The position numbers were made by a program, and so were the translations under genes. The notes under the pieces were generated by a model. That model was not told where the DNA came from. It ran no database searches and saw only the letters and a program-made list of their open reading frames with translations. From Anaerotignum sp. (GTDB lineage: Bacteria > Bacillota_I > Bacilli_A > Acholeplasmatales > Anaeroplasmataceae), in NCBI GenBank assembly GCA_963617645.1, contig CAVEPF010000125.1, positions 10,222 through 64,762 on the forward strand: DNA of 54,541 nucleotides. The letters run 5' to 3'. This document shows positions 4,865-44,048 of the stretch, one piece after another. Each line of letters begins with the position of its first letter. Position 1 is the stretch's first letter.

Positions 4865-4873
4865 ATATCACCA

Positions 4874-10193: not shown

Positions 10194-10203
10194 CAATAAT
10201 AAG

Positions 10204-23376: not shown

Positions 23377-23499
23377 TAGGTAGCACAAAAGTCTTGTATA
23401 AAAATTGAATTGTAACGAATTGATTTAATAAATTTTGTTTCATATTACCACCTCAGGTGATAAGCAAAAACAATAAGAAAAAACTTCTTAAAAAATTTA

Positions 23500-23570
23500 A
23501 TCTTATAGTCTCTAAATTTACGGTTTAGAGGTAGAAACTTGCTTACCACATTTAAGCTATTATACAAGAT
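23500..23570 (-). ncRNA. Purine riboswitch aptamer, guanine-type
   Basis: The minus strand reads UCUUGUAUAAUAGCUUAAAUGUGGUAAGCAAGUUUCUACCUCUAAACCGUAAAUUUAGAGACUAUAAGA. It matches the xpt-type consensus (UAUAAU, AAGUUUCUACC, CCGUAAAU, GACUAU), and the specificity position is C, indicating guanine/hypoxanthine. Confidence 0.85.
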
Positions 23571-23807
23571 ACAGCTATTTAAATTTACATTTATATTTTA
23601 GCACAAAGAATATATAAAAAAAGCCTTATTTTTAAGAAAACGATTTCTTTTTTAAAAAATAGGCCATTTTTTTATAATTTTGAACCATTTTCATTCTAAT
23701 AATTTTAAATTTAATTTTAGAATTTTAATAAAACTTAAATTAAATCTAAACTTGTCCTACATTTAGTGTTAAAATGTAATTAGAAAAAAGATAGAGAGGT
23801 AAAAATT

Positions 23808-25216: not shown

Positions 25217-26428
25217 TTAATCAACAAACTTATGAGCAATCTTAGCACTAAATGTTTGATTTTCTTTAAATTCTTTATCTAATTGATTTAATAAATTAAC
25301 ATTATTAATATCATTATTTTCAACTACAAAGTAATGACAGAATATCATCATTGCAATTAAAGATGAATCAAGACCATCAATCTTTTGTTTTCCAACATAA
25401 TCATACATATCATATAATGAATCATTTAACTTATTAACTAAATTAACAATATTCTTATCAAGAACATTAACAAACTTTAATGAATAATATTCTTCTTGGC
25501 TCTTTAAATACCAATGGAAATATGAATCTTTTACATTGTTACATAATTCAATTAATAAGCCATGACGAGGAATACCAAATGATTGATATATTGCATATTG
25601 ATAGAATGCATATTCAAACATACGACAATATAAAATTTCCTTAGGATTACTAATTGGAATTAGTTTATTTGCAATTTGATTATGAATGTATTCAAGTTTA
25701 CATGGAAGACAAGCCATTTCTTTATAATAAATACTAGTGTGGTTATCCCAAAATGCAGCTTTATTAACTTGATTATTTAATGTTGATTTTTGATCTCCAC
25801 CATTATCTTTTGAAGCTAAGAAATAGTGATATAAAACATCCTTAGTAACAGCAGCTTTCTTAATTCTTCCTAAAGCAGCTACAGTAAATGCTTCATCTTC
25901 TGCAAAATCTAGGTCTTCTTCAAAGAATAAACCACTAATAGTTTCTTTTTTCCATAATTTATTCCATGGAAGAGTAATAGCAAATGTATGTTGATAGAAC
26001 TTAATAAATTCATCATGTGTACTTAAATCTAGTACTTCATCTTTTGTAAAATGTGAAAAGAAGAATGGATGTTTATTATTGCATATAGCAACATCACAGT
26101 TGTTATCTTCAATCATTTTAGACATCTTTTCAAAATAATTAAGTTCAAGATCGTCGTCCGCATCAACAAATTGAATATAATCACCTGTTGCTCTCTTTAA
26201 TCCTTGATTTCTAGCGTGTGATACACCGCTATTTTTAATACTATAAATTTTAATTCTATCATCATTCTTTTGATATTCTTGAATCATAGCTAAACTATTA
26301 TCAATTGATCCATCATTGATGATGATAATTTCTAAATTTCTATAAGTTTGATTAAGAATACTTGTAAGCATTCTATCTATTGTTTTTTCCGCGTTATACA
26401 TTGGTATAATGACTGATATAAGTTTCAT
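25217..26428 (-). CDS. Family 2 glycosyltransferase with a C-terminal extension of about 180 aa and unknown function
   Basis: The N-terminus ISVIIPMYNAEKTIDRMLTSILNQTYRNLEIIIINDGSIDNS and the DxD region FVDADDDL are canonical GT-A/GT2. The C-terminal half is shared only with the adjacent paralog. Confidence 0.85.
   Translation of the reverse strand: MKLISVIIPMYNAEKTIDRMLTSILNQTYRNLEIIIINDGSIDNSLAMIQEYQKNDDRIKIYSIKNSGVSHARNQGLKRATGDYIQFVDADDDLELNYFEKMSKMIEDNNCDVAICNNKHPFFFSHFTKDEVLDLSTHDEFIKFYQHTFAITLPWNKLWKKETISGLFFEEDLDFAEDEAFTVAALGRIKKAAVTKDVLYHYFLASKDNGGDQKSTLNNQVNKAAFWDNHTSIYYKEMACLPCKLEYIHNQIANKLIPISNPKEILYCRMFEYAFYQYAIYQSFGIPRHGLLIELCNNVKDSYFHWYLKSQEEYYSLKFVNVLDKNIVNLVNKLNDSLYDMYDYVGKQKIDGLDSSLIAMMIFCHYFVVENNDINNVNLLNQLDKEFKENQTFSAKIAHKFVD
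26145..26189. repeat. 45-nt tract identical to 27366..27410 (copy 1)
   Basis: tcaagatcgtcgtccgcatcaacaaattgaatataatcacctgtt occurs exactly in both GT2 genes, although the flanking DNA has diverged. Confidence 0.9.
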
Positions 26429-26446
26429 TTAAATTTCCTCTATTTA

Positions 26447-27652
26447 TTATTTAATTAATTTGTTTACGTATTTAGCTTCTTCTGTGCTATTTTCTCTTAA
26501 AGCCTTATCAAGTTGATTTAAAAAGTTAACATTATTTAAATCATTATTTTCTAAGACAAATAATTTAGCAAATATTGAAATAGCTACATATGTAGGTTTT
26601 AAATTTAATCTATTTTTGTAAATATCTTGATATGCATCATACATATAGTCATTTAATTCTTTTACTTTTTTTGAAAGCTCTGGGCTAGTTAAATCAAAGA
26701 ACTTTAATCCATAGCGTTCTTGTGTTTTAACGGATGCATAGAAGAATGCATCAGTAAATATATTCATCATTTCAAGATACATATTCTCTTTAGGAATGTT
26801 AAAACCAGCATAAGCTGCATATTGGAAGAATGTATAATCAAATACACGACAATATAATATTTCTGTAACATCTGTTATTGGAATTTGTTTATTATCAATA
26901 GCTCTTTGGAATTCTTCAAGTCTATGTGGTATAGTCCATAAACCTTGGTAATAGAAAGAAGTTTTGTGTTCCCAAAACTTTGATGCATTAAGTAGTTCAT
27001 TAATTTTTGAGTTCTCTTCTTCTCCATCACTAGCCTTAGCTAAGAAATAATGATATAAAACTTTGCTAGTAGAAACTACACGTTTAATATTTTTAGCAAT
27101 AGTGCAGAAGAATAATTCATCTTCTGCAAAATGAATATTTTCAAAGAAATAAACATCTTTAACCGCAGTAGCTTTAATTAATTTATTCCATGGAAGAGTT
27201 GGACCATATGTATGTTGATAAAATTCAATGAAATCATCATGATTAGTTAAATCATAAACTCTATCAGTAAAATATGTCATAAAGAATGGGTGTTCATTAT
27301 TACATATAGCCATATCTGAATTTGTTTCAAGAAGTCTAGATAATTGAATCTTAAAATAATCTAAATCAAGATCGTCGTCCGCATCAACAAATTGAATATA
27401 ATCACCTGTTACATGTTTCAATCCTTCGTTTCTTGCATGCGATACACCTTGATTAGCTTCAGTATAAATTTTAATTCTTGAATCCTTTTCTTGAAGACTC
27501 TTTAATGTCTTTAAAGAGTCATCTGTAGAACCATCATCTACACAAATTATTTCTAAATTTTTATAAGATTGGTTCATAATTGAGCCAATACTTCTATTTA
27601 AATATTTATTTGCATTATAAACAGGAACAATAACTGAAATTAAATTGTCCAT
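26447..27652 (-). CDS. Family 2 glycosyltransferase, tandem paralog of 25217..26428
   Basis: ISVIVPVYNANKYLNRSIGSIMNQSYKNLEIICVDDGSTDDS and FVDADDDL motifs. It is collinear with its neighbour over the full length, including the C-terminal NNDLNNVNFLNQLDK. Confidence 0.85.
   Translation of the reverse strand: MDNLISVIVPVYNANKYLNRSIGSIMNQSYKNLEIICVDDGSTDDSLKTLKSLQEKDSRIKIYTEANQGVSHARNEGLKHVTGDYIQFVDADDDLDLDYFKIQLSRLLETNSDMAICNNEHPFFMTYFTDRVYDLTNHDDFIEFYQHTYGPTLPWNKLIKATAVKDVYFFENIHFAEDELFFCTIAKNIKRVVSTSKVLYHYFLAKASDGEEENSKINELLNASKFWEHKTSFYYQGLWTIPHRLEEFQRAIDNKQIPITDVTEILYCRVFDYTFFQYAAYAGFNIPKENMYLEMMNIFTDAFFYASVKTQERYGLKFFDLTSPELSKKVKELNDYMYDAYQDIYKNRLNLKPTYVAISIFAKLFVLENNDLNNVNFLNQLDKALRENSTEEAKYVNKLIK
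27366..27410. repeat. 45-nt tract identical to 26145..26189 (copy 2)
   Basis: It has the same 45-mer as copy 1 and encodes TGDYIQFVDADDDL (the DxD region). Confidence 0.9.
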
Positions 27653-27800: not shown

Positions 27801-28649
27801 CTATACTCTTAATTCAAGAATTGCTTTTAAAACAGGTAATTTGAGTGTCTCTTTTGAAATAGCTTGATACTCTGATTCAGATATATAGTCAGTACCAAAT
27901 TGTGCAACTAAAGATTCATATGTTTCTAAAGTAAATTCAAACCATAAATCATGAACATCATCATTTTTTACTCTATCTTTATCTACAGAACCTTTTATTG
28001 CAATGTCACCTAGGTTTAATGCCATATTACTTATGCCGTTTTTGTTATTGTTAAGATATTTACCAAAATAAAATTTATTATACATAGAAACACTAATATC
28101 TTCACTTGTATTATCAGGCGAGTCAGTATTAAATGTATTATTAATTACATCACCAACTCTAACTGATAAACATTTAAGTAAATTAATTTTATTTTGCTCA
28201 GTATACGAAGTATCAGCAAACTCAAATGATATATAGTTAACACCTTCAGATTTATTTACAATGCTAAACTTCAAAACTTTACTTTGCGTAGGATATAAAG
28301 ATATATCATATGTTAAATCAATAGTTGCACTAACTTCATCAGTAGTCGCATAATTCATATTTATATATTCAAAAGCTCTAGTTTCAGTGTAATATTCTAA
28401 CTTATCCTTAGGATACTTAGATGTAATTGATTTACCTTCATCTTCATATCTTTCAAGTAAATTAGGTATACCATTGTTGTTATCATCTAATCCTTCATAC
28501 AAATAAACTTGTGAATCAATTTTAGTTACCTTTAAAGTTATATTATTTGTATCATCATTTATTGTATACCAACCATATATTATAGATATGCTTAAGACTA
28601 AAGTCACGATAAGCATAAATATAGTTATTAACTTTTTAACATTTTTCAT
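27801..28649 (-). CDS. Secreted/anchored 282-aa protein with a SipW/TasA-type N-terminal region; putative TasA/camelysin-like subunit
   Basis: AAGGAGGT RBS. The N-terminus is MKNVKK, a hydrophobic segment, then SIIYGWYTINDD...NNITLKV (compare TasA GGTWAAFND...GTLDLS). The central motif SLYPTQSKVLKFSIVNKSEG resembles NLKPGD...F.F.N.GS of TasA. Also present are FEFTLET (compare FSFEATQ) and a beta-strand-like C-terminus VLKAILELRV. Confidence 0.45.
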   Translation of the reverse strand: MKNVKKLITIFMLIVTLVLSISIIYGWYTINDDTNNITLKVTKIDSQVYLYEGLDDNNNGIPNLLERYEDEGKSITSKYPKDKLEYYTETRAFEYINMNYATTDEVSATIDLTYDISLYPTQSKVLKFSIVNKSEGVNYISFEFADTSYTEQNKINLLKCLSVRVGDVINNTFNTDSPDNTSEDISVSMYNKFYFGKYLNNNKNGISNMALNLGDIAIKGSVDKDRVKNDDVHDLWFEFTLETYESLVAQFGTDYISESEYQAISKETLKLPVLKAILELRV

Positions 28650-28666
28650 ATCGTGACCTCCTTATA

Positions 28667-29506
28667 TTAGCCAAGTAATCTAATTGCACCAATTGAAACA
28701 GTTTTTTCAGATAAGGCATTTGTAGATACATTTTTAATTTTATTTTGAAGTTGTTCTAACGAAAATTCAATTCTAAATGTTGTACTGTAATATTTTTCAT
28801 CATTAAAATCTACTTTAGTTTCAGATGAAAATGAACCAGTTTTAAATGTAACAGAACTAAAATTAGTATCGTCTTCATAGTCTCCGTTATACTGACATAA
28901 CCAATTCCAAGTGCTTACGCTTTGAGTCTCTGTTCCGTCATCTGCCGTACTTGTAGTAACCTCACCAACTCTATATACACCAAGAACACTATGTGTAAAT
29001 GTTTTAACTTCGTTACTATCCTCTATTGTATGTGTTTCACTAAATGTACCATTAGTATCATTAAAATTAGTTAAACTAATACTATAATCATTATCTTTAT
29101 ACTTTTGATCAGGATAATACCATAAGGTAATATCTAAATATTCATTAGGGTATAAAGAATCAAAGAACATAGGTATTTTTTCGTTATTAGTTGTGTCAAG
29201 AATATAAGCGTTTTTACTAACATCCCATTTATAATAAGTATTAGTTCCATCTAATCTTTTATAAATATTATCCTCTTGTAGAGTAGTTGACGTATTAGAT
29301 ACAAAATATCTTTTAATTTGAATATAATCACTAAAATGAATATTACTATTTTCAGAAGATACATTAAGCGTATTAGCTGATACATTATTACTTGTTGTAT
29401 ACCATCCGTATATACTAGTTATAAATACTAAAGTAACAGCTAGAGTGAATAGTAGAGAGATTAATAGTTTAATTTGTTTACTAATTAATTTATTAGACTT
29501 CTTCAT
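28667..29506 (-). CDS. Secreted/anchored 279-aa paralog of 27801..28649; putative TasA/camelysin-like subunit
   Basis: The N-terminal hydrophobic segment is followed by TSIYGWYTTSNN...NTLNVS. Shared motifs are SLYPNEYLDITLWYY, YRVGEV (VRVGDV in the paralog), RIEFSLEQ, and the C-terminus VSIGAIRLLG. The start codon lies 2 nt after the upstream stop codon. Confidence 0.45.
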   Translation of the reverse strand: MKKSNKLISKQIKLLISLLFTLAVTLVFITSIYGWYTTSNNVSANTLNVSSENSNIHFSDYIQIKRYFVSNTSTTLQEDNIYKRLDGTNTYYKWDVSKNAYILDTTNNEKIPMFFDSLYPNEYLDITLWYYPDQKYKDNDYSISLTNFNDTNGTFSETHTIEDSNEVKTFTHSVLGVYRVGEVTTSTADDGTETQSVSTWNWLCQYNGDYEDDTNFSSVTFKTGSFSSETKVDFNDEKYYSTTFRIEFSLEQLQNKIKNVSTNALSEKTVSIGAIRLLG

Positions 29507-29508
29507 AA

Positions 29509-32500
29509 CTAATACCTCTCTACACTAAATTTAATACTAAATGAAATTGATTTTCCACTTAAAGTAAAACTGTATGTAACTTGGAATGCATCTGCAGTCG
29601 TGTCATCATATTTTTCATAATATAAAGAAATATCTTCTACATTTGGGCTAGTGACTAGAGTAAAATTACCATCATTTTTTGTATAATACGTCTTTGTTTT
29701 ATCTATAGAAGTATCACTTGTTTTTTCATATTCTACAAAACTCCACACGATAGTTGCTTTAGATACGGTATTACTATTATATGATTTAGCAAGTAGATAA
29801 TCGCTAGCTGTTGTAGAGAAAGAGCTATATAAACTACTTACAGCAACACCAGTTTTTAATTGTGATTGATAAAAAATACCATTTTTAAGTCTTGTATAAT
29901 CATTGATTGTTTTACTTTCTTCAAATAACACTTCTCCTGTACCTGCGTAAGTATTATATACAGATACACCAGTTAGTGTAATATCAGCAAATACCCAGTA
30001 ATTAGTTAATCCATTAGATCCGTAGAATATAGAAAGCGTAGAATCCGAACTAGAATCAACAACTTGATTTTCAATATGAACATCGTTTAACCATGTTAGA
30101 TTTTCAAGGAAATCAAATTGATAAATATTACAACCTTCTACATTTAATGTAGATAAATTTGTAAGTGCATTAAAGCGAGAAAGCGAATCATTATCATTTT
30201 CAGTATAAGTTGATGTATCAAATCCTTCAGTTACACCCGTACAATTTTTTAAAATAAGTTCTTCAAGGTTTGTAAGAGTAGCAAGTTCTTGACATATTGA
30301 AATTGCACTAGCTTCACTTGTTAACTTACCAGTTAAATTAACGCTGTGCGTTCCTTTTAAATATTTAATACCAGTGAAATCTGATACTGAATCTAATGTA
30401 TCATCACTTGTTACATCTACTGCTACATTTTGATTTAACCAGTCTACTAATACATATTTACCTTTAGTAGTAGATGTACCAGCAGAATAATTTATAGCTT
30501 TAGTATAATCCCCTATTGTATATGAATTATTATCAGTAACATTTAGGTTAAATGAATCATAAATCCATTTATAGAATGTTTCGTTCTTTATATCAGTACC
30601 ATAATGTAATGCGCCAGCTAGGGTAAATGTAGTTAAATATTGTTTAGTAGTAGTTGAATAACAATATGTAGTCCAATTATCGCTAACTTTCATTTTATAG
30701 TTATATAATAAACCCATACTTTGATTCTCGTTTGCTACTTCACTAAGATTATATACAATAATCCATTTAGCATCACCATATGATAAAATGTTACTTAAAG
30801 ATATATTATTATCTGTTAAATATTTATCAAAAATATCTTTATATGATTTGCCTTTTTCAGGTACATCTAATAAATAAGAATTTTTATTATAGTATAATTT
30901 AACTCTAATAGCACTAGTTTGATTAATTACACTACTTTGATATGTAGTACCTGTTTCTTCTCCTGGATCTTTATAAGCACTAGTTAGTGTTACAAAATCA
31001 AATAATACGATAGGACCTGTAGTACTATAGGCTAGAGGAATTTCAATATCGAAATCTACATAATTATTAGTATTATTTTTTATATAATCACTATAGTAAT
31101 AATAATATGGCATGAATGAACTAATAGTTTCATCGCTACCTTGTTTAACTTCAATACTTAAATCGATAGATATATCCTTACCATTAATTACAAATACACA
31201 AGTTAATAATACATCTTGAATATAAACTTCAGGAGTTTTTCCACTTGTAACTTCTAGTAATCCTTTGCTTGTATCAGTAGAATCAGTTAATGTATATAAT
31301 CTATTAGAATCATTTGTTAATTTATAATGTAGACTTGTAATATTAGGATATAAAGTAGTATCAATATCCTTAAGAGAATATAATTTTTGATTTGAATAAT
31401 TATTATCAGTCTTGTAAATGGTAATCTTACCACCATACCATTCGTTAAGTAAATTCTTAGCTAATGTAGATTCATTTGATATAACAGTATCAACACATGC
31501 AGCTTTTACATATAAAGTTAAGCCTGTAGTATCAGTAGCTGTATTAATCTTTATTTGTAGAGCTTTTAAAGAACTATTAGGAGATAATAATACATAATTT
31601 TTAGCTGTATCTCCGTCAACATCTTTAATATAAGAGTTAGATGATATGGCTTTATATGTTGTTGTGTCTCCGTCAAAAATTGTTGTTGCATCACTATCAC
31701 TGCTCTTAACGTAAGGAGTATAAGTTATAGTAGACATACCAATTTTCTTAGGCAATATCAAATCATGATCTAATCTATACAAATTAGATTCACTATTATA
31801 ATATTTCTTTAGTGTTTCTAAGACTAAAGTTTGAGCTTGTTTTTCTGAAGCTTCGTTATTATCAGGATTTATAATATGTAAAACAACTTCACTAGTGGCA
31901 ATAACCTTATCCCCTATTTTAATATTAATTGTAAGTGTTACATCTCCTTCGCCTTCAGGTAAAGTAATTATACCTAAATTAGAAAGAATATCTTCATTAC
32001 TAGATTCATATTCTATAGATATATTTGAATAATTGTAATAAGTAAATGGTAAATCAAGTGAACCATTTGCAAATGCACAAGAAGTATGTTTATTATCACT
32101 ATATGCGCAGTAACAAACATTATTAACTACACGATTTGGCATAAATAGTGAAGAATCAAATGCATGCACATTATCACTAGTAGTGATTTTTTTATTAGAC
32201 GTTAGAGTAGTTAAATCTATATTATCTACTCTTTCATCGGTATAAGTAAGTAGTTTTTCAGATATTAATTTGAAAGCATCATATGCTAAATATAAATTTG
32301 AACTTGAAACTACTTTAATGTAGTTAGATAATTCTTTAGTTTCTTCGTCTTCTGTGCTACTTGCATAATTATTTAATATTTTACAAGAAATATTTATATT
32401 AGTAGTAACTACAGCGTTTGGAGTATATATTTCTATGCTTCCTTCGCTTGCATCAGTTCTATCAGTATAAGTAGTAGTATCATCCGCATCAGATACTATA

Positions 32501-32925
32501 ACTTGTTCAGGAATAATATATGAACCTTCTTTACTTGAATAAATTTGGAAAGTTCCGTAAAACTTATTATTATATATTAACTTATATCCATTCAAATATA
32601 AGTTATATCCAGCAAGATCTAAATTTGAGTCAGCAGTTATATATAAATCATTATATAAAACTATATCATTTTTAAACTTTAATGCTTTTCTATTTTGAGA
32701 ATTATCAGCTATAGTACTTGATTCACTTGAATTATTATATGTTTCATTTTTAGCATAAGTAATAAGAGAATCAAATGATTCAATCTCAATAATATCACCA
32801 GTTAAATCTTTACTTATAGTTATATTATTACTACTTGTAGTTAGATTAAAGTAGGCAAAAACCGAAATGCTACCAAGTAATAATATTGATAATATTAAAG
32901 ATATAATAATTATTTTCTTTTTCAT
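29509..32925 (-). CDS. Large (1138 aa) secreted surface protein with a SipW/TasA-type signal region and an LRR module
   Basis: The N-terminus is MKKKIIIISLILSILLLGSISVFAYFNLTTSSNNITIS. It has a DLAGYNLYLNGYKL module, and leucine-rich repeats at about nt 30060-30400 (LTNLEELILKNC, LTNLSTLNVEGCNIYQFDFLENLTWLNDVHI). It is rich in N, T, S and Y, has no LPXTG motif, and ends ISFSIKFSVERY. Confidence 0.6.
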   Translation of the reverse strand: MKKKIIIISLILSILLLGSISVFAYFNLTTSSNNITISKDLTGDIIEIESFDSLITYAKNETYNNSSESSTIADNSQNRKALKFKNDIVLYNDLYITADSNLDLAGYNLYLNGYKLIYNNKFYGTFQIYSSKEGSYIIPEQVIVSDADDTTTYTDRTDASEGSIEIYTPNAVVTTNINISCKILNNYASSTEDEETKELSNYIKVVSSSNLYLAYDAFKLISEKLLTYTDERVDNIDLTTLTSNKKITTSDNVHAFDSSLFMPNRVVNNVCYCAYSDNKHTSCAFANGSLDLPFTYYNYSNISIEYESSNEDILSNLGIITLPEGEGDVTLTINIKIGDKVIATSEVVLHIINPDNNEASEKQAQTLVLETLKKYYNSESNLYRLDHDLILPKKIGMSTITYTPYVKSSDSDATTIFDGDTTTYKAISSNSYIKDVDGDTAKNYVLLSPNSSLKALQIKINTATDTTGLTLYVKAACVDTVISNESTLAKNLLNEWYGGKITIYKTDNNYSNQKLYSLKDIDTTLYPNITSLHYKLTNDSNRLYTLTDSTDTSKGLLEVTSGKTPEVYIQDVLLTCVFVINGKDISIDLSIEVKQGSDETISSFMPYYYYYSDYIKNNTNNYVDFDIEIPLAYSTTGPIVLFDFVTLTSAYKDPGEETGTTYQSSVINQTSAIRVKLYYNKNSYLLDVPEKGKSYKDIFDKYLTDNNISLSNILSYGDAKWIIVYNLSEVANENQSMGLLYNYKMKVSDNWTTYCYSTTTKQYLTTFTLAGALHYGTDIKNETFYKWIYDSFNLNVTDNNSYTIGDYTKAINYSAGTSTTKGKYVLVDWLNQNVAVDVTSDDTLDSVSDFTGIKYLKGTHSVNLTGKLTSEASAISICQELATLTNLEELILKNCTGVTEGFDTSTYTENDNDSLSRFNALTNLSTLNVEGCNIYQFDFLENLTWLNDVHIENQVVDSSSDSTLSIFYGSNGLTNYWVFADITLTGVSVYNTYAGTGEVLFEESKTINDYTRLKNGIFYQSQLKTGVAVSSLYSSFSTTASDYLLAKSYNSNTVSKATIVWSFVEYEKTSDTSIDKTKTYYTKNDGNFTLVTSPNVEDISLYYEKYDDTTADAFQVTYSFTLSGKSISFSIKFSVERY

Positions 32926-32950
32926 AAGGCTCTTGCCCCCTTTCTTTTAA

Positions 32951-35900
32951 CTAACCAACGACTTCTATAAGGAATAATCGCTCATATTTCTCTCCATTTA
33001 CTGTAATACTAGCTTTAATAGTCGCGTATCTAGTTCCACCAACACCATAAGAATAGTTTGTTGATGTAGATCCATTATTAAAGTAGTTATCATCCATGTA
33101 TTCCATAATGTTACAAATTGCTTTAAATCCATCATAATTTAAAGAATTAGATTTATTAGAGAATGTCCCGGAACTACAATTTAAATACATATCATTTAAT
33201 GTACCAAATCGTTTTAACGCATAAGCCCCAGTTGATTCATCAAATTCAACAATAAACCAAATAGATGTTCCTAAAGTGAAACCTTCTGCTTTAGAGCCAG
33301 AATAATAATAAATTTTTCCAACTGAATCTTGAGTTAATGATCCAAATACGCTAACAACATTTGAATCAGAACCAGTAATTTCTTCGTATGTATTTACTTC
33401 TACCCATTTAAATTTATTAGTACTAGAATCTAATTCAAGCTGGTAAATAGTATTTGTAGTATAAGTAAATCCATTGTAAGTAGCAGTACCTTCGCCGTAA
33501 GCATAATATTTATGATAATATAAACCGAATTTAGCATCATTTAAATGATTATTAGCTTCGGATAAAATATCATCCATATGTTTGGCATTTCTAACTGCAG
33601 TACTTGAACTTGCTGATGTATAAGTAAAGCCGGATTCAGTTAATGTTATAGTCTTGATACCTGAAGTTATATTCGTTTGAGTACTTTCATTATAATAAGT
33701 AACACCATTTGTTATTGAAATAGTTTTACCAATATATGATGTTGCCTCAGCTATTTTAGTTGAAGCCATAGCTGAATAATAGGCTTGTTCATCAACTTTA
33801 TCTGAAGATTGACTTGCACCTATAGTAGTTGTGACTGGGTCAGCAGTTGTTGTTGATTGACTATAATAATCACTATCATAAATACAATAAACATTACTAG
33901 ATGCTGCTCCTGGGAATTTTGAAGGAGTAGATGAACCATAATATATATAATATGCATCTTCATATACACTAAGTAAATCAATAAAATTATAGGTATAATT
34001 TGAATACCTACCTGATCGACCTGTATTAACATACCAAGTCTTTTGTGTATCTATTACCGTTTTTTTATGTTCAGTTTGTGTACCACTATCGAATTGTGCT
34101 ATATCATAGGAAACTTGAGAAATTGTATATACACCATTAGAATCAACTGAGTAATAATATTTATAAGTAGTATAATATATAGTGTTTTTAATATCTAAGT
34201 CATACCATAAATATGTCGATGTCTTTGTTTTTTTACCATCTACATATCCAAATCCATAAGAAGAAGAATAATGAGCATTACCATTAATTTCATTTCCATC
34301 TTTATCATAAATATATAATTTATTTGACTTACCATTATTATCTTTAACTGTTGTTACATTATCGCCTGATGGTGTGTACGTAGAATTAGTGGTTGAATCT
34401 AAAGTATCTCCGTTATATTTTGTCGAAGATGTAGGCGTTGTAGGTTCACTACCTGTTTGTTTAATGTCTTCCTTAGTTAAATTTTTATCTTTAATTATTT
34501 GATTAACTTCATCATCACTAAGAGATTCAGGTATACCACTTGATGGTGTTTCTTCAACTGTAACATTATCACCATAAGGATCTTTAACAATTTCTAATAA
34601 TATTGATTTTCCACTATCTTCAGAATAAATTTTAATTAATGAATTTTTACTAAACGTTACATTTTCATAAGTGAATTCTTCAGTTACAATAAAATAATTG
34701 GTATAAGGATATGCCATGGTATCTAAAGCTGAGGTATTTGATGAGGTAACATATGTTAATCCATTACCTTCTTCAATAGACCATTGAACTGAAATAGAAT
34801 TACCATTTTCATCAATAACATTTTGAGTTAGTTGAGCATTTTCAGCAAGTAAGGAATAGAATTCTTCTAAATAGATTAAACCTTCTGCTGCTGCATCTAA
34901 TTTTTTTAAATATTGAGCACGAGATTCATTTCCGGATGTATCAAATGTAGACCAATAACAAGTTGCGTCTCCACCACTTTTAAGATTAATAGCCTCTAAT
35001 ACAAATTTAGAATATTCATTAGAGACATTAATATCATAAATATCAACATATGACAAAGATGAAATATCAAGTTTTAATAAAGATCCTACATTATTAATAG
35101 CTTGGTTATGTTGTAAAGAAATAACTTTTAATTTTTCCAATTTATAAATATTTTCTAAACTCAATGACATATTTGAATCAGAACAATATTCTAAAGCTAA
35201 ATTGATTAGTTTTGGATTATTTGATGTAATACGATTGAATAATCTAGTTAGAGTATCATCTAAATTGAAGGCTCTTAATGAATTATCATAATCTCCATGA
35301 ACATAGAATGTAGTTATGTTAGGGAAATAATCTAACCCATTCAAAGATGAATCTAATATTGTGACAGTTGGAACAACAAAATCAAGACCACATAATTTGA
35401 TTGTTGAAATTTCAGCTTTAAATCTTTCATTTGTTGTAACATTATAAGATAAAGATTTACCCAAATCTGAATACGCTTGTGAAATAAGAGTCGCAATTCC
35501 ATCTTCAGTCAACATTTTTGGAATATAAAAATAATGGTCTCTAAATTCCTTTACAAATGTTTCTCTTGCAGCGTCATTAGAACTAGATTTAGAGTTCAAT
35601 AAGAACGCTAAAACAATTTCAACTTCAGCTTTTGTAATGTATGAAGTATCATCTTCAGCATAATCTGTTTTTTTATATTTAGAATTTCCCCATCCGCCTG
35701 TACTTGAATAAGTCCATGAAGTATCAGAATCTACAATGTTACTCCAGTCTGCACTACCTGTAACACCAAGACAAGGAGAAGTACCTGCCTCCCCATCAGG
35801 ATTAAAGTCTTTATCATTATGAGCCCATTGTAATACTTCTAGGAATTTTGAATAAGATGAAACGTTAGAATTACTACCTACAGTGACAGTTGTTCCTTCA

Positions 35901-38900
35901 TAAGTAAACGAACTACCTGCTAAATAACTTTGCACATAACCAACCCATGTTTTTGCATTAGCTTTACTAATATAATATTTTGCATTACCTGATGAATCTT
36001 TTTCTTGTGTGGTCACACTATTGATTAATGTCGTCCATTCATCATCAGTTAAAGAAGTTTTAATATATTTTTTATAATATGCTTTAATAACAGTTTCTTC
36101 ATCAGTATTTAAATAAGAATCACCATTAGATCTATATGATCCATAAGTTGATAAGAAGTCATCATCAAATTTCATCTTTCCAGTAAAGTGTGATTTTAAA
36201 GTGTCAGTTGTATCACCGGTAGCCCATGAAATTAATTTAGATAAACCATATATCTCGTGATTATCACTACTAGTATTTGTTTCTTTTAAATTAAGAACAA
36301 TAGTATTACAGAAATATGCATCATGACGCAAAATATAAGCACCTGTATGATTAGTAACTATACCATTAGATATTGTAAATGAGGATTCATCATTATTTGA
36401 TGTATAATCATCATCAATTACATCTCCATTATAAGATTCACTAGTCTTCTTCTTTAATTCAGTCCATACTTGATATTTAACTGAATTAAATACGGACATA
36501 TTAGCAAAACCTTCTGAATCACATTTAATAACACCAGGACAAGTAAAATACTGAATTCTTGCGGCCGTATGAAGTGCGTTATCACTTGTAGGCATTACAA
36601 GTACAACGTTAACTGCAAATGATGAATCATTAAGTAGAAATCCTTCAGGGTTTAAACATACTTTATACTTAACAATTTGCTTCATTTCTGAAACTGTAAA
36701 CATATTGCGCCAAGAACTAGAACTTGATTCACTATATGTATATACTCCACTAATTCTTGCTACTTCTTTAGTGCAATTATCACCAGAGTATCCAATAATT
36801 TCACTTATAGCACTTTCGCTAGATTCAGGAATTACATATTGAATTAAATAACTGTTATATGTACCATCAAGGATAAAATCGCCTTTTTCATTTAACATAT
36901 TATTTTCTTTTCTTGTATCTAATATGTTTTGTAAAACATCAACGCGGGACAAATCTTGTTCAGTTTTTTCAAATACTAATTCATTTAAACTAGTATCATA
37001 ACCAGGATTGATAATAATATTAACTTTGCCACTATATTCTTCTTCATCATTAGCAAATTTAGCAACTAAATTAATTTGAGCATAAGTTTCAAATGTAGCA
37101 CTACTTAAATATATAGCAACACCCTTATCGTTATTGTGGTTAATATCTGTAGCATTTTGATCTATAGAAATAAAATTATATGCTGGTATTTGCGTATAAG
37201 TTAGTGATTCAAACGCAACATCATTAAATCCTAACCATGAATAACCTGTTTCAGTAGATTCACTATTTTCGTTATATGGAGTATTATATGCATTCGTATA
37301 ATGATACTTGTTTGAAGTACTTGAGGCTACTATTGGTAAATAATAATATGAATATAATTCTCTACCACTTGAATATACATGTTCAATAGTAATAGGTGAT
37401 AATTGTGCTAAAAAATATTGGAATATAGTATCATGATTTTGATTTGATATTTTAATAGTTATTGTTTTAGTTAAAACTTTATTATTAATAGTAAAATATC
37501 CTGTAATAGATACTTTTGTACCATTATTTACATCACTTTGAATAATACCAGTATCAGATAAATAATTACTATTATTAGATTTCCATTCAATAGTAATATT
37601 TTTGTCTTTTAATGTAGTAGGTAAAAATAAATCAGCTGAATTAGTTGTAGTAATATTGCCAACGTTATCTGTTTCAGCTAATTTAGTTAAATAATATAAT
37701 TCCCCGTTTTCACTAAATAAAGCTGCTAGAGTTGCATCTTCATCAGTTCCATATACCTTTACACCAACTTTTTCTCCGTTAAAAGTTATATATTCTTCAG
37801 AAGTTGTAACAAAATCATCCTTAACGCTATCTTTAATGCTTATTGTATTATTGCCTGATTTAAAAGTAATATTACTTGAAGTCTCTATTTCATTTTTTTC
37901 AGTTGTATAAAAAGACAATCCATTTAAAATATTAATTGTGTCATCAACTGATATACCATATCTTACTTTTTCTTTAATGTAAGATGAAATTAATTCTTTA
38001 GCCAATTTAGAACTATATTTAGCAAGTGTAACATAATTAGCATAAACACTCGATAAATTTGTACCTTTTGTATTATATAAGTCTTTAATTTCTAATATGC
38101 CATTTTGATTTTCTAACACTATATTAAATCCACTAGATATAATATTATCAAGTGATTCTATTGTTAATTTTCTTAAAGATTTAATTACTGCATTACCCGA
38201 TTGATGCAAATATATTTTCTTTGTACCATTTAAATAATGACCATTTAAATCTAATTCAAAAGGATAATAAATAGTTAAGTTAGCACTTGTTATATTTATA
38301 TCATTAAATAAAACAATTGTTACATTTTCACTTAATAGTCCTGTATTGATATCGTCAACAGCCTTAATTAAATCAGATTCATTATATACATATAAGTAAT
38401 TAGTATAATCAGCTGTTTTAGCATAGGTTTTTAATTTGAATGTTAAATCTGTATTATCATCAAATATTGATCCATCTGAAGCACTATGTAAAACAAACGT
38501 TAATTCATCAGTTTGACTACTTGCGGTATAAGTATCAGAATCACTCATTTGTGCCGCATTAACAAATCCTGTAAAATTAATATATCCACTTTTTACTTTA
38601 TTTTCGTCATTTGAACATAAGTTTCCTAAAGTATCTATAAACTCTGAGTTAAAGTATACAAGGATAGCACTTGAAAAACTTTCTGTCTTTAAAATAGTAT
38701 CACTATCAAATGAAAACTCATATTGATATTGTATTACAGCTTTAGTGTTATTTTTAACAGTAATAGTTAGTGAATTACTGTCACCAGCTTTGCTAAATTT
38801 TAAGGGTTCTACAGAGGTATCAACAACTAAATTATCTTTAGTAGTATCATTTATATCTACAACTTTATCAACGTCTTTAGCTGTTAAATCGCCCTGTGTT

Positions 38901-39001
38901 TTTACTGATGATTTGAATAATACACTTGCTACTACAACTATAGTAGAGCACAATAAAAGAGCTGTTATTACAATAGAAATAAGGAATTTTTTATTTTTCA
39001 T
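32951..39001 (-). CDS. Giant (2016 aa) secreted surface protein with a TasA-like N-terminal region and an LRR module
   Basis: The N-terminus is MKNKKFLISIVITALLLCSTIVVVASVLFKSSVKTQGDLTAK, followed by KFSKAGDSNSLTITVKNNTKAVIQYQYEF and DLTFKLKTYAKT (TasA-like pattern). It has a DLNGHYLNGTKKIY module and an LRR region at about nt 34990-35360 (LINLALEYC, LEKLKVISLQHNQINN-like). It has no LPXTG motif and ends ERLFLIEVVG. Confidence 0.6.
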   Translation of the reverse strand: MKNKKFLISIVITALLLCSTIVVVASVLFKSSVKTQGDLTAKDVDKVVDINDTTKDNLVVDTSVEPLKFSKAGDSNSLTITVKNNTKAVIQYQYEFSFDSDTILKTESFSSAILVYFNSEFIDTLGNLCSNDENKVKSGYINFTGFVNAAQMSDSDTYTASSQTDELTFVLHSASDGSIFDDNTDLTFKLKTYAKTADYTNYLYVYNESDLIKAVDDINTGLLSENVTIVLFNDINITSANLTIYYPFELDLNGHYLNGTKKIYLHQSGNAVIKSLRKLTIESLDNIISSGFNIVLENQNGILEIKDLYNTKGTNLSSVYANYVTLAKYSSKLAKELISSYIKEKVRYGISVDDTINILNGLSFYTTEKNEIETSSNITFKSGNNTISIKDSVKDDFVTTSEEYITFNGEKVGVKVYGTDEDATLAALFSENGELYYLTKLAETDNVGNITTTNSADLFLPTTLKDKNITIEWKSNNSNYLSDTGIIQSDVNNGTKVSITGYFTINNKVLTKTITIKISNQNHDTIFQYFLAQLSPITIEHVYSSGRELYSYYYLPIVASSTSNKYHYTNAYNTPYNENSESTETGYSWLGFNDVAFESLTYTQIPAYNFISIDQNATDINHNNDKGVAIYLSSATFETYAQINLVAKFANDEEEYSGKVNIIINPGYDTSLNELVFEKTEQDLSRVDVLQNILDTRKENNMLNEKGDFILDGTYNSYLIQYVIPESSESAISEIIGYSGDNCTKEVARISGVYTYSESSSSSWRNMFTVSEMKQIVKYKVCLNPEGFLLNDSSFAVNVVLVMPTSDNALHTAARIQYFTCPGVIKCDSEGFANMSVFNSVKYQVWTELKKKTSESYNGDVIDDDYTSNNDESSFTISNGIVTNHTGAYILRHDAYFCNTIVLNLKETNTSSDNHEIYGLSKLISWATGDTTDTLKSHFTGKMKFDDDFLSTYGSYRSNGDSYLNTDEETVIKAYYKKYIKTSLTDDEWTTLINSVTTQEKDSSGNAKYYISKANAKTWVGYVQSYLAGSSFTYEGTTVTVGSNSNVSSYSKFLEVLQWAHNDKDFNPDGEAGTSPCLGVTGSADWSNIVDSDTSWTYSSTGGWGNSKYKKTDYAEDDTSYITKAEVEIVLAFLLNSKSSSNDAARETFVKEFRDHYFYIPKMLTEDGIATLISQAYSDLGKSLSYNVTTNERFKAEISTIKLCGLDFVVPTVTILDSSLNGLDYFPNITTFYVHGDYDNSLRAFNLDDTLTRLFNRITSNNPKLINLALEYCSDSNMSLSLENIYKLEKLKVISLQHNQAINNVGSLLKLDISSLSYVDIYDINVSNEYSKFVLEAINLKSGGDATCYWSTFDTSGNESRAQYLKKLDAAAEGLIYLEEFYSLLAENAQLTQNVIDENGNSISVQWSIEEGNGLTYVTSSNTSALDTMAYPYTNYFIVTEEFTYENVTFSKNSLIKIYSEDSGKSILLEIVKDPYGDNVTVEETPSSGIPESLSDDEVNQIIKDKNLTKEDIKQTGSEPTTPTSSTKYNGDTLDSTTNSTYTPSGDNVTTVKDNNGKSNKLYIYDKDGNEINGNAHYSSSYGFGYVDGKKTKTSTYLWYDLDIKNTIYYTTYKYYYSVDSNGVYTISQVSYDIAQFDSGTQTEHKKTVIDTQKTWYVNTGRSGRYSNYTYNFIDLLSVYEDAYYIYYGSSTPSKFPGAASSNVYCIYDSDYYSQSTTTADPVTTTIGASQSSDKVDEQAYYSAMASTKIAEATSYIGKTISITNGVTYYNESTQTNITSGIKTITLTESGFTYTSASSSTAVRNAKHMDDILSEANNHLNDAKFGLYYHKYYAYGEGTATYNGFTYTTNTIYQLELDSSTNKFKWVEVNTYEEITGSDSNVVSVFGSLTQDSVGKIYYYSGSKAEGFTLGTSIWFIVEFDESTGAYALKRFGTLNDMYLNCSSGTFSNKSNSLNYDGFKAICNIMEYMDDNYFNNGSTSTNYSYGVGGTRYATIKASITVNGEKYERLFLIEVVG

Positions 39002-39019
39002 ATTAACACCTCCCTAAAT

Positions 39020-39052
39020 AAAAAAACCAGTCGCAAAAAGATTTGCAACTGG
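39020..39052 (-). terminator. Terminator-like hairpin inside the leader of the surface-protein operon (attenuator candidate)
   Basis: The minus-strand RNA reads CCAGUUGC-AAAUCUUUUU-GCGACUGG (one G-U pair) followed by UUUUUUU. It ends only about 6 nt before the GGGAGGUG RBS of the 2016-aa gene. Confidence 0.55.
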
Positions 39053-39112
39053 CTATCCTAATAAAAGGACCCTATAGCTTTCCGTCACAAGATTACTCTT
39101 GTTTTGGCAATA
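39045..39112 (-). promoter_or_regulatory. Structured 5' leader with partial resemblance to a GEMM-I (c-di-GMP-I) aptamer
   Basis: The minus strand reads UGCCAAAAC-AAGA-GUAA-UCUU-GUGACGGAAAGCUAU..AGGAUAGC. This is a hairpin capped by a GNRA loop, flanked by GCCAAAA and GACGGAAAGC. From memory the GEMM-I consensus has GCAAA and GACGCAAAGC at these positions. A second hairpin follows. The match is imperfect and P1 is only about 4 bp. Confidence 0.25.
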
Positions 39113-39176
39113 TATCGCATGATATATATATCACTAAATATTAAAAATTTAGGTATATGAGACGTCTCATATACCC

Positions 39177-40631
39177 TTATTTTAATTTATTTAGATATTC
39201 TAATTCTTCATTAAGATTAAGACCTAATGAATTAAATAATTCATAATGTTTTTTTGAGAGATTTTCCAATTCCCATTTTGTTTTTTTATAGTGTAACTTG
39301 ACATACCTTGCATCTAGAAGGATATCTGTTACACTTTTTTTAATCTTTGACGTATTTTTAACAAATTCACTATGTATTAAACTAGTGATTAATAATATAA
39401 ATGATAAGCCTTGAGTTTGATAGTAATCACTAGAATATGTCGCATCAACTTCAAGTTTGTTTTTGTAATAATCATAAAAAGTTTCAATGGTCCAACGTTT
39501 CTTATATAATTTATAAATTTCTTCAGGAGATTTATCAAGATTTGATTGTAGTACAATTAAACCAAAAGTCTTTTCGTATTCATTATATTTTTCTAATGTA
39601 TAAACTCCTTTTTCATCGCCTATTTTTGACATATAATCACTGGATTCTAAAGCATATTGACTTAGGTCTTTGAATGCAGTAACAGTTACACCATCAATTA
39701 TTTCAGATTTATATTGGATAGGTGTATGTTTCTTACCTTTTTGATATGAGAAGATATTATCAAATTTTAAATTTTCAGTTATTTTTTTGTAAGAATGATA
39801 ATTAGCTTTTAATGGTATTATGTATTTATTACCATTCTCAGAACACAATCTTAGATTTTCTGGGTCTGAAAAACCTTTATCGATGATAAATAAGGTGTCC
39901 TTGAAGTCGATTCTTTTAAATATATCTTTGAAAGATATATTATCCATGGTTCCACCTGGATATATACGAGAAAATATTGGCTCTGAATTATTGATATCAT
40001 AGGCCATTAATGCATTCATCTGATAATCACCCAACTTGTTATTTTTATTTCCTTTTTCTGCAAGGTCATTATCATGAGATGAAGTTTTAATTACGTGTCC
40101 ATCAACTGCAAGTTCTTTACTAGATTTATCCGCAAGTAATTGTTCAAATTTTTCTACATTTGTTGTGTGCTTACCTAGATTATCAAATAAATTAGTTATT
40201 ATATGTTCTGATAAGCTAATAGAAGGATATCTTTTGGATAAATATGATAAATCATAATCTGGTTTAATATTTTTAACATAAGTAAAACCATTAACAAAAT
40301 GAAGTAAAGATAATAAATATATTTGATAAGCTTCCTTTGGATTGAATACTTCTAAAAGTTTATTTAATACATTATATGATAATTTATAAGATATAAAATA
40401 TTCTCCAAAATTCATTGATGTCAGCATTTCATTCTTTGAATAATTTTGATTTGGAACAAATCCCAAATCTAAAGATATGGATCCAACTAGCTTTCCCATT
40501 TTGGTTTTCCATTTATCATCTACTTTTACAAAAGAGTGTTCATAAACATAATACTTACCATTTATAACTTTAACCATTGTACCTTTTGGTTTTAATTTTC
40601 TTATCTCTTCTGGCACTGAATATTTACCCAT
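39177..40631 (-). CDS. DDE transposase (DDE_Tnp_1 / IS4-IS1634-like)
   Basis: About 484 aa starting at the ATG at 40629-40631, which has an AAGGTGA RBS. Motifs are LAVDGHVIKT, FIIDKGFSD and YKKRWTIETFYDYYKN (the Y-x-R-x-x-x-E signature of IS4-type transposases). A perfect palindrome GGTATATGAGAC/GTCTCATATACC follows the stop codon. Confidence 0.85.
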   Translation of the reverse strand: MGKYSVPEEIRKLKPKGTMVKVINGKYYVYEHSFVKVDDKWKTKMGKLVGSISLDLGFVPNQNYSKNEMLTSMNFGEYFISYKLSYNVLNKLLEVFNPKEAYQIYLLSLLHFVNGFTYVKNIKPDYDLSYLSKRYPSISLSEHIITNLFDNLGKHTTNVEKFEQLLADKSSKELAVDGHVIKTSSHDNDLAEKGNKNNKLGDYQMNALMAYDINNSEPIFSRIYPGGTMDNISFKDIFKRIDFKDTLFIIDKGFSDPENLRLCSENGNKYIIPLKANYHSYKKITENLKFDNIFSYQKGKKHTPIQYKSEIIDGVTVTAFKDLSQYALESSDYMSKIGDEKGVYTLEKYNEYEKTFGLIVLQSNLDKSPEEIYKLYKKRWTIETFYDYYKNKLEVDATYSSDYYQTQGLSFILLITSLIHSEFVKNTSKIKKSVTDILLDARYVKLHYKKTKWELENLSKKHYELFNSLGLNLNEELEYLNKLK

Positions 40632-40855
40632 CACAATCACCTTTCTTATGTACCTATTATATACCTATATTATAGCATAAAAGAGCATTTATTACCAGAA
40701 TTGACTAATAAATTTTAGTAAGAAAAAATAAAAAAGTGAACTTTCAGGTTTCCTTTTAAAAAGAAACGGTTTAAAAAATTCACTTTTTGTTGTAGAATAG
40801 TATATATCATTAAAAAAGTATAGATTTTATATACCTAAAATTTTAGGTTTTAGTG

Positions 40856-43373: not shown

Positions 43374-44048
43374 TTATAAATTAGATAAAATCTTATTTGT
43401 TCTTTCCTTAGCTACCATAATATAGTCTGCTAATAATTCACTACTCTTTTGCCATGTAAATCTTGGTTCACGAGCTTGAGCTAAAGTGTTGATATCATTA
43501 TTTACAAAAATAACACTATTTCTTTCGCCAGTATGCTTATTTTCAGCATTTCCGTCTTGAGCAATAGTAACACAGTTTGTTAATTCATCGCTAACTGTAG
43601 TAACGTTATTTACTCTTATTTGAAGTTCATTACCATTTTCGCCAAATACTTTAGCTACAGAGAATAATTCGTTGAATTTCTTCATATTTTCATCATTTCT
43701 AACGATGAAATTTGCATCAGTGTATGCAACACGATTAAACATAGGATTAGCAAGTTGTGATAATTTAGAAACAACACTATTAGTGAATTCTAAGAAATTA
43801 TCTACAGTATCTCCTTTTTCAGTATTATAACCATATTGGATATCAATTCTGTAAGTACGGATAACAACAGCCATATTTTCATGTGTAAAGATATGATTTG
43901 TTGTAGGTAAGCCGTTAGGTAAAGTTGTGCTATTTTCTTCATGTTTGAAATCAGCTAATAATTCCTTTACGCCACTAATTTTTGAAATTAGATCACTTAC
44001 ATTACCAAAAACCGAGAATGTAGATTGAGCAGTTATAATTTTTTCCAT
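43374..44048 (-). CDS. Hypothetical protein (224 aa), apparently co-transcribed with xfp
   Basis: Clean ORF with an AGAGGT RBS, 29 nt upstream of xfp with no terminator in between. It has no TM segment or signal peptide, and I cannot name a domain with confidence. Confidence 0.55.
   Translation of the reverse strand: MEKIITAQSTFSVFGNVSDLISKISGVKELLADFKHEENSTTLPNGLPTTNHIFTHENMAVVIRTYRIDIQYGYNTEKGDTVDNFLEFTNSVVSKLSQLANPMFNRVAYTDANFIVRNDENMKKFNELFSVAKVFGENGNELQIRVNNVTTVSDELTNCVTIAQDGNAENKHTGERNSVIFVNNDINTLAQAREPRFTWQKSSELLADYIMVAKERTNKILSNL

Follow-up and report, generated by a model that had tools for sequence, protein, structure and literature searches.

A putative c-di-GMP-induced fibre/adhesin operon of TasA-superfamily type in Anaerotignum sp.

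Cyclic di-GMP (c-di-GMP) can control adhesion at the RNA level: for pilA1 and CD2831 in Clostridioides difficile and for Bc2-cap in Bacillus thuringiensis, a c-di-GMP aptamer in the 5′ leader switches on adhesion via antitermination. Fibres of the TasA type are SipW-dependent and assembled by donor strands (PMC9674648, PMC7395162); TasA and AbpA polymerise through N-terminal donor strands (PMC9674648, PMC9245690), and strand complementation of TasA by TapA has been described as well (PMC10151520). Also known are loci that have several subunits and tip proteins and are linked to c-di-GMP enzymes, such as the AbpX-type loci, which encode minor subunits, tip proteins, signal peptidase I (SPase I) and c-di-GMP enzymes and whose products assemble with calcium (bioRxiv 10.64898/2026.01.04.697558). 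Here we analyse a stretch of 54,541 nucleotides (nt) of Anaerotignum sp. (GenBank assembly GCA_963617645.1, contig CAVEPF010000125.1, positions 10,222 to 64,762; hereafter the window; GC content ~27%), in which a c-di-GMP-I riboswitch precedes four minus-strand genes coding for two giant (G1, G2) and two small (S1, S2) proteins. On balance, the products of this operon probably form an extracellular fibre/adhesin system that is induced by c-di-GMP and is of the TasA-superfamily type.

An initial annotation of the same DNA had proposed a candidate TasA-like system, without knowledge of a described system of this composition. That none has been described is half true, as published loci of the TasA superfamily also combine minor subunits and tip proteins with SPase I and c-di-GMP enzymes (bioRxiv 10.64898/2026.01.04.697558). 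New in the locus described here are a subunit family without a curated model, a fixed four-gene cassette with 1138-amino acid (aa) and ~2000-aa partners, direct control by a c-di-GMP-I riboswitch and a distribution in uncultured low-GC metagenome lineages. Our literature search found no paper joining 'c-di-GMP riboswitch' with TasA-type systems.

The operon and its c-di-GMP riboswitch

The elements of the operon, in the order of transcription, are:

39041–39118, minus strand: c-di-GMP-I riboswitch aptamer (RF01051), 56.3 bits against a gathering score of 35
39015–39054, minus strand: expression platform with a terminator hairpin of 13 bp (AGCCAGUUGCAAA...UUUGCGACUGGUU) and a U7 tract behind it, from the terminator scan
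32951–39001, minus strand: G1, 2016 aa, with a signal-like N-terminus ...VVVA↓SVLFKS (arrows mark predicted cleavage) and an orphan N-terminal domain of ~170 aa
29509–32925, minus strand: G2, 1138 aa, N-terminus KK-hydrophobic-SVFA↓YFNLTTSSNNITIS, of the same class as in the S family (the S1- and S2-type proteins)
28667–29506, minus strand: S1, 279 aa, a paralog of S2 without the DxNxNG loop
27801–28649, minus strand: S2, 282 aa, first member of a family without annotation that comprises ~112 clusters at 50% identity
27750–27796, minus strand: terminator-like hairpin and U-run 3′ of the S2 stop codon (fold −12.1 kcal/mol, z = −3.9)

The four open reading frames (ORFs) were re-derived, and their sizes and spacing agree with the initial annotation, with gaps of 25 nt between G1 and G2, 2 nt between G2 and S1 and 17 nt between S1 and S2. 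Each gene has a purine-rich Shine-Dalgarno site of its own (GGGAGG for G1, AAAGGGGG for G2, AGAGAGG for S1 and AAGGAGG for S2). The hairpin behind S2 is probably the 3′ end of the operon; the terminator pattern scan did not call it. Since this hairpin follows S2 and the two GT2 glycosyltransferase genes further downstream have a separate, near-consensus and strong promoter-like site (TTGACT-17-TATAAT, 27721–27693), the transcription unit appears to end after S2.

All four products have a Lys-rich N-terminus with a hydrophobic segment, as had been annotated; it is the only such segment in G1, G2, S1 and S2, and the mature parts of the proteins are acidic (pI about 4.5). A motif scan likewise bore out the absence of LPXTG motifs and lipoboxes. 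With regard to a sortase-assembled pilus or an LPXTG adhesin, the four proteins have neither LPxT[GASN] nor a C-terminal hydrophobic segment, and there is no sortase gene among those neighbour genes that were scanned. Lipoproteins were ruled out (no lipobox in the four proteins), as was a prophage or toxin module (no supporting domains); type IV pilins or pseudopilins were rejected as well, the N-termini being without a class III signal (G↓F/M-x-x-x-E) and the proteins without a Pfam or NCBIfam pilin match.

The riboswitch and terminator directly upstream of G1 had been missed in the initial annotation. The 3′ end of the aptamer lies 39 nt before the G1 start codon; its score exceeds the gathering threshold, the ligand-contacting nucleotides are kept, and the model of the UAU-variant riboswitch scores below its own cutoff on this aptamer. 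Compared with the consensus, the unpaired G before P1 and the GACG-AAAGC core are retained, with a C where the UAU variant has U; by comparison with the Vc2 structure, we take these positions to be the equivalents of G20, A47 and C92. Because the ligand-contact nucleotides are consensus-like, the aptamer is taken to be a standard c-di-GMP binder. The minimum free energy fold contains the 39015–39054 hairpin (z = −4.1), and according to the cmscan alignments the 3′ strand of the second aptamer helix (AGCCAGUU) is at the same time the 5′ arm of the terminator hairpin. Owing to this shared strand, the bound aptamer and the terminator would be mutually exclusive, and hence we predict a c-di-GMP ON switch. 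An aptamer also precedes G1 in the related metagenome locus L032 (such loci are numbered with the prefix L), where the aptamer sequence and the hairpin have both been kept and the first stem shows one change that appears to be compensatory.

Links to c-di-GMP recur in other related loci. In L038, S-like paralogs are preceded by three aptamers, of which two form a tandem pair; one such aptamer is present in L040, and in L004, L006 and L007 aptamers precede a GGDEF-EAL gene located immediately 3′ of S2. The c-di-GMP-I riboswitch coordinates are 10980–11059 and 19674–19749 in L004, 8436–8515 in L006 and 5574–5656 in L007. A c-di-GMP-sensing leader on genes for c-di-GMP turnover would be a possible feedback loop. 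Close relatives have a GGDEF-EAL gene pair inserted between S2 and the GT2 genes, an insert absent from the window. The window itself has a gene for a PAS-PAS-GGDEF protein (49173–50705, minus strand), judged from its domains a candidate diguanylate cyclase that could feed the riboswitch.

The S1–S2 pair: conservation, signal region and fold

S1 and S2 belong to paralogous families (hhalign 97.4%, E 1e-11, 182 columns). A word-index search returned 10 relatives of S2 and six of S1, whereas an exhaustive profile search for the S2 family gave 112 representative proteins of 62–373 aa, 75 of them at E ≤ 1e-10; the family statistics, the alignment and the structure model below are based on 91 sequences. 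Pfam and NCBIfam scans of the four operon proteins yielded no confident family of any kind, and PDB sequence searches with the S1 and S2 profiles gave no significant match. With a degenerate DNA pattern for [IV][DN]S..8..DxNxNG[IV]P[DN]L, 33 metagenome loci were found. The GC content of the loci ranges from 24% to 56%, and the S2 family therefore spans several lineages; L021 is labelled human gut metagenome, and the rumen/gut origin of the other loci is a reading of contig names.

The four-gene arrangement is not due to chance. The same gene order is present in L003, L004, L006 and L007, down to 40% identity, and the cassette is found complete or in part in ten more loci (L012, L016, L023, L028, L030, L031, L032, L037, L039 and L041), with gene products of about 2000, 1007–1136, 254–266 and 258–290 aa. 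The co-occurrence asked for with the initial annotation is thus seen in more than ten metagenomic loci for the cassette and in ~30 for the S1–S2 pair, an S1-type gene lying directly upstream of an S2-type gene in HMM scans of the ORFs; L018 and L036 have no S1-type gene directly upstream of S2. A contig of a metagenome-assembled genome (L009, CAVCDW010000016.1) is 95% identical to the window over S2. In the 43%-identical relative L001, a RelB/ParE toxin-antitoxin pair (4241–4838) directly follows S2 and is itself followed by an IleRS gene with a T-box leader; as these genes differ from those of the window, the downstream context of the cassette is not conserved.

Three segments of S2 are relevant for its export and possible assembly:

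28572–28649, minus strand: residues 1–26, predicted cleavable signal peptide (...IIYG↓W), from family-wide site statistics
28521–28571, minus strand: residues 27–43 (WYTINDDTNNITLKVTK), putative N-terminal donor strand, proposed after the model of TasA, AbpA and AbpX
28461–28487, minus strand: residues 55–63 (DDNNNGIPN), a conserved DxNxNGxP(D/N) loop, EF-hand- or DxDxDG-like

In every one of the 91 S2-family members, residue −1 of the predicted site is Ala, Gly or Ser (A71/G11/S9) and residue +1 is Trp; −3 is V, T, I, S or A, +2 is F or Y, +6 is often D, and +11 to +22 alternate between hydrophobic and polar residues. The S-family N-terminus has the pattern of a signal peptidase I site with an amphipathic strand behind it. 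At motif level the signal region resembles the SipW-dependent class and seems to parallel TWA↓AFND of TasA, whose mature chain starts at A28 (checked against 8AUR). The candidate donor strand was placed at residues 27–43 because of the analogy with TasA, AbpA and AbpX (PMC9674648, PMC9245690); it lies within the N-terminal region best shared with S1, and the match to G2 reaches only its first residues.

If these segments stayed uncleaved, the operon would encode four type II membrane proteins forming a tethered surface complex, which might suit a wall-poor host. Such anchors would be consistent with the AlphaFold2 (AF2) model, in which S2 residues 2–29 form one long helix, with the lack of any other anchor in the four proteins (LPXTG, lipobox or C-terminal transmembrane (TM) segment) and with a window without a dedicated peptidase. 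However, A/G/S at −1 in 91 of 91 proteins together with a small or aliphatic −3 residue is the signature of signal peptidase I and not of an anchor, segment lengths of 23–34 aa are typical for Gram-positive signal peptides, and in L011 and L038 the S1–S2 pair has a SipW-type peptidase gene next to it. We consider uncleaved anchors distinctly improbable.

Within the loop, D55, N57, N59, G60 and P62 are invariant among close S2 homologues (alignment A1), and D55 and G60 are at least 90% conserved across the 91 sequences. By its sequence the loop resembles a calcium site; it was aligned to an EF-hand loop in the PDB sequence search with non-significant E-values. A first AF2 model of S2, built from 10 close homologues, reached a pLDDT of 61.7, at which a fold search is meaningless, and was replaced by the model from 91 sequences (pLDDT 91.9, pTM 0.81). 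In the latter, a helical signal segment is followed by a jelly-roll-like beta-sandwich of 12 strands with four short helices. Residues 30–43 are modelled as coil, the block 31–40 having the lowest confidence (mean pLDDT 66) and the ends of the segment being well predicted. The top Foldseek match of this model in the PDB is the TasA homologue AbpA (7UEG, probability 0.92, E 5.6e-3), the only match with a probability > 0.5 among the top ten.

The strongest independent evidence for a link to TasA and SipW is the adjacency of peptidase genes to the pair in two distant loci. In L011, the peptidase gene comes after S1 and S2, stop and start codons overlapping, and its product scores 69.1 bits with TIGR02228, the archaeal/SipW-type signal peptidase I model (cutoff 51.85 bits). 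The peptidase of L038 (10001–10720) scores 104.9 bits with TIGR02228 and 99 bits with the Bacillus SipW model. Family-level signals also exist: PF12389 (Peptidase_M73) is matched by two of the 91 S2-family members (best E 5.3e-5), TIGR04088 (SipW-type signal) by one of the 91 at E 0.077, and an L038 paralog reaches 16.7 bits with TIGR04088 against a cutoff of 19. The L038 region (1370–10720, GC 50%) encodes, besides the S1/S2 pair, six further paralogs with xTYAWF N-termini and a C-terminal LEGCDxxC, and also has tandem c-di-GMP-I aptamers (3942–4018 and 4040–4116), a third aptamer and an AAA ATPase gene; it may be a larger, ancestral-looking form of the cassette system.

S1 and S2 might alternatively be non-polymerising jelly-roll helpers (lectin-like binders, a chaperone or anchoring factors) of c-di-GMP-induced giant adhesins G1 and G2. 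Riboswitch-controlled large adhesins without fibres are known in Bacillota, namely CD2831 of C. difficile and the Bc2-controlled collagen-adhesion protein of B. thuringiensis; moreover, the giants account for ~85% of the coding length, most Foldseek matches of S2 are generic carbohydrate-binding or jelly-roll domains, and a significant sequence link to TasA is missing. On the other hand, the S1–S2 pair is the most widely conserved part of the cassette and adjoins a SipW-type peptidase in at least two loci (L011, L038), and an amphipathic strand following the cleavage site, together with AbpA as the top match, fits subunits better. A helper role is in our view unlikely, and fibre subunits are the reading that we follow below.

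The giant proteins and a possible mode of assembly

Behind its N-terminal domain, G1 has a fold-unassigned region partly like G2, with a repeat-like motif (IVLFNDINIT..LDLNG..LNG), a weak aBig_2 match and a stretch resembling leucine-rich repeats (LRRs) at about residues 1200–1330. Its orthologues in L030, L032 and L039 have 1972–2036 aa, and the layout hydrophobic-A↓SVLF(K/R)S is conserved in four orthologues. Beyond this general signal layout, no homology of G1 to G2, S1 or S2 was detectable, and hhalign linked its N-terminal domain neither to the S family nor to TasA (0.2%) nor to the L038 paralogs; the G1 motif 'KFSKAGDSNSLTITVKNNTK' looks TasA-like by resemblance only. A word-index search with the G1 N-terminal profile returned five fragments, none annotated, and PDB sequence searches with this profile and with both giants gave no match.

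All 12 G2 orthologues compared have A24 and Y25, and F26 is conserved to 90% or more among them. The G2 and S families have only the signal and an (F/L/V)-A-Y-F segment in common (hhalign 94.6%, 36 columns), and a single-sequence alignment puts 'IESFDSLITY' of G2 opposite 'IAQIDSxVxLY' of the S family. Further downstream, G2 has a repeat motif like that of G1, matches aBig_2 weakly and gives weak LRR matches at residues 864–953, so that the likeness between the two giants consists of the common repeat-like motif (IVL.NDL.IT....LDLNG..L.LNG), the weak aBig_2 matches and an LRR-like stretch. Pfam LRR matches are sub-threshold and confined to G2 (E 0.007–0.6), and the label 'giant LRR proteins' of the initial annotation has no match above threshold behind it. 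Its description of all four proteins as N-terminally related holds for S1 and S2 (97.4%), for G2 as far as the signal and FAYF segment, and for G1 only in the general layout; the giants are accordingly not built on the same N-terminal module as the small proteins, with which they have only the signal and first-strand segment in common.

The repeat-like motif of G1 and G2 could, judged from its sequence, also belong to a repetitive binding or catalytic fold, and the operon might then encode an apparatus of a gut/rumen anaerobe for binding or degrading polysaccharides, with the giants as enzymes or binders and the S2 loop as a dockerin-like calcium module. Weak matches to glycoside hydrolase (GH)-associated beta-sandwich domains and the origin of the loci (labelled for L021, read from contig names for the others) would fit such a role. 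However, no catalytic or carbohydrate-binding module (CBM) family was detected in the four proteins, the loop is single and not a duplicated dockerin repeat, and a function in matrix or adhesion fits c-di-GMP control and the SipW association better than catabolism does, which makes this very improbable.

In the fibre/adhesin system that we favour, riboswitch, G1, G2, S1, S2 and terminator would form one transcription unit. High c-di-GMP would stabilise the aptamer, the terminator would be blocked and the operon transcribed. The products would be exported via Sec and cleaved after the small −1 residue, by a SipW-type or the general signal peptidase I, before the invariant Trp of S1 and S2, the Tyr of G2 and the Ser of G1. 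The freed amphipathic N-terminal strand of an S subunit would then enter the beta-sandwich of the next subunit by donor-strand complementation, a model taken from TasA, AbpA and AbpX, and the DxNxNGxPD loop may make strand assembly calcium-assisted. We propose S2 as the major and S1 as the minor fibre subunit. G2, and less certainly G1, would have a strand of this kind at its N-terminus, in front of its very large adhesive body, and would act as cap or nucleator of the fibre, in the manner of a tip protein or one of the TapA/AbpB type; we propose G2 as a tip or nucleating adhesin and G1 as a giant adhesin or anchor component. The complete picture, a heteropolymeric calcium-assisted donor-strand fibre with S2 as major and S1 as minor subunit, giants plugged in via a common N-terminal strand, a c-di-GMP-I ON switch and a wide occurrence in uncultured low-GC gut/rumen Bacillota, is put forward tentatively and is, taken as a whole, doubtful.

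Several observations weigh against a TasA-type fibre. None of the four proteins passes the HMM check suggested with the initial annotation, as neither PF12389 (gathering score 22.5 bits) nor TIGR04088 (cutoff 19 bits) matches any of them, for PF12389 at E ≤ 1, and the sole M73 match inspected in the family (P0112, sub-threshold) covers residues 1–35, that is, the signal region only. hhalign of the S family against Bacillus subtilis TasA gives 10%, aligning 'SLYPTQSKVLKFSIVNKSE' opposite 'NLKPGDKLTKDFQFENNGS', the pairing proposed earlier, and finds no link between the L038 paralogs and TasA; given these failed comparisons, there is no sequence-level link to TasA. HH scores over 36–39 hydrophobic columns, as between the G2 and S families, can be inflated by composition. 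The AbpA match is weak (E 5.6e-3, TM 0.29/0.41, 0.41 by target, rmsd 12.7 Å), TasA is absent from the top 50 Foldseek matches, and the other matches are generic jelly rolls. A signal-peptidase motif is absent from the whole 54.5-kb window, as the initial annotation had said, and in L030 and L039 no riboswitch was detectable within the ~120 nt that could be scanned before G1. Polymerisation, cleavage, the role of calcium and the placement of the giants are moreover inferred.

The idea of a SipW-cognate, TasA-like system thus survives in part: the cleavage-site pattern, the AbpA match, the peptidases of L011 and L038 and the two M73-matching family members argue for it, the HMM results on the four proteins against it. 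Similarly, the fold check on S2 returned a beta-sandwich with a TasA homologue on top, albeit weakly and with TasA itself outside the first 50 matches; as for the internal 'TasA/camelysin-like motifs', the strings are there, without statistical support (hhalign against TasA 10%, for G1 0.2%).

If the proposal is true, a large protein family of gut and rumen anaerobes, so far without annotation, would join the TasA-type donor-strand fibres, and the operon would be the first example found in which a c-di-GMP riboswitch directly controls a TasA-like cassette. A further implication would be that very large adhesins can be mounted on a fibre and displayed without sortase, LPXTG motif or chaperone-usher machinery. 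No Pfam or NCBIfam model covers S1/S2-type proteins, and the alignment is a seed for annotating ~112 clusters of hypothetical proteins. Riboswitch and fibre genes together make a compact, testable module.

Neighbouring genes and comparison with known systems

Directly downstream of S2 are two paralogous GT2 genes (25217–27652, minus strand; 401 and 403 aa), whose products each have a C-terminal extension of ~250 aa and might glycosylate the Asn/Ser/Thr-rich proteins of the operon. The GT2 pair is also found near the cassette in L004 and L005, and not in more distant loci. On the other side, an IS-type DDE_Tnp_1 transposase gene (39177–40640, minus strand; 487 aa, GTG start; no plasmid match) ends 58 nt upstream of the aptamer, with a perfect palindrome, GGTATATGAGACGTCTCATATACC, at 39151–39176 on its 3′ side. 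Upstream of the aptamer no similarity to L032 remains, and the transposase insertion may have displaced or replaced the native promoter of the operon.

The window also contains a YutD-like gene and a CdaA-type diadenylate cyclase gene (50937–51710, minus strand), the latter adjoining the PAS-PAS-GGDEF gene. Both of these genes, like the T-box leader of L001, are mainly associated with Bacillota, and the low GC content of the window looks Bacillota-like too. A purine riboswitch (23486–23587, minus strand, 77.1 bits) lies upstream of a long pur operon comprising purE (22855–23325), purK (21771–22871), a gene for a single-chain PurL of 1231 aa (18071–21766) and further ORFs to ~10204, and a small bacterial SRP RNA is located at 1203–1295 (minus strand, 56.9 bits). 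Two ORFs are without a Pfam match, 43374–44048 (minus strand, 224 aa) and 23808–25136 (plus strand, 442 aa), the latter being the sole plus-strand gene near the cassette.

Among known systems, pilA1, CD2831 and Bc2-cap are like the cassette in having a c-di-GMP aptamer in the 5′ leader of surface-adhesion genes, and unlike it in their cargo, which is type IV pilins or LPXTG/collagen-binding adhesins and not a TasA-like cassette. The sipW-bsaABC operon of Clostridium perfringens, compared by description only, is a matrix system of an anaerobic Bacillota member with accessory secreted proteins in the same operon, and its secreted SipW-dependent subunit BsaA forms stable, sortase-free polymers, which is a feature of BsaA (PMC7395162). 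However, BsaA has ~23 kDa and is regulated by the two-component system BsaRS.

Like the B. subtilis tapA-sipW-tasA operon, the cassette encodes secreted acidic proteins modelled as a beta-sandwich, whose signal ends in small-aromatic-small before an aromatic residue (TWA↓AFND in TasA, V-F/Y-A↓W-F/Y in the S family), together with a larger accessory protein of the same signal class; a SipW-type peptidase is encoded in relatives of the cassette, and the context is biofilm or adhesion. In contrast, the cassette has no HMM-level membership, two paralogous subunits instead of one, partners of 1138 and 2016 aa instead of TapA with ~250 aa, a c-di-GMP riboswitch instead of SinR control, and any peptidase outside the operon.

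The AbpX-like loci (bioRxiv 10.64898/2026.01.04.697558) also encode acidic proteins (pI about 4–4.5) with an aromatic and an acidic residue near the mature N-terminus, major and minor subunits, large predicted tip proteins and often SPase I and c-di-GMP enzymes. Calcium has been linked to their assembly, a role that in the cassette is predicted from the S2 loop. As compared by description and not by sequence, they differ in that the acidic residue of the S family is at +6 and not +4, the SPase in relatives of the cassette is of the small SipW type (TIGR02228; 195–239 aa) and not a ten-TM enzyme, and the cassette has riboswitch regulation and no SLH or LPXTG anchors.

AbpA/AbpB of Pyrobaculum calidifontis (7UEG) differ from the cassette, which is riboswitch-controlled and has a bacterial, low-GC host, and S2 is ~100 aa larger than AbpA, with extra helices and a calcium-like loop, the match being weak (E 5.6e-3). 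Nevertheless, AbpA is the best structural match of the S2 model, its operon is likewise without a dedicated peptidase, and it is a jelly-roll variant that polymerises by an N-terminal donor strand, as we propose for a cassette known from its genes and a monomer model. As with G2 and G1 in the proposed fibre, the larger neighbour protein of AbpA has been proposed as a filament initiator and adhesin (PMC9245690).

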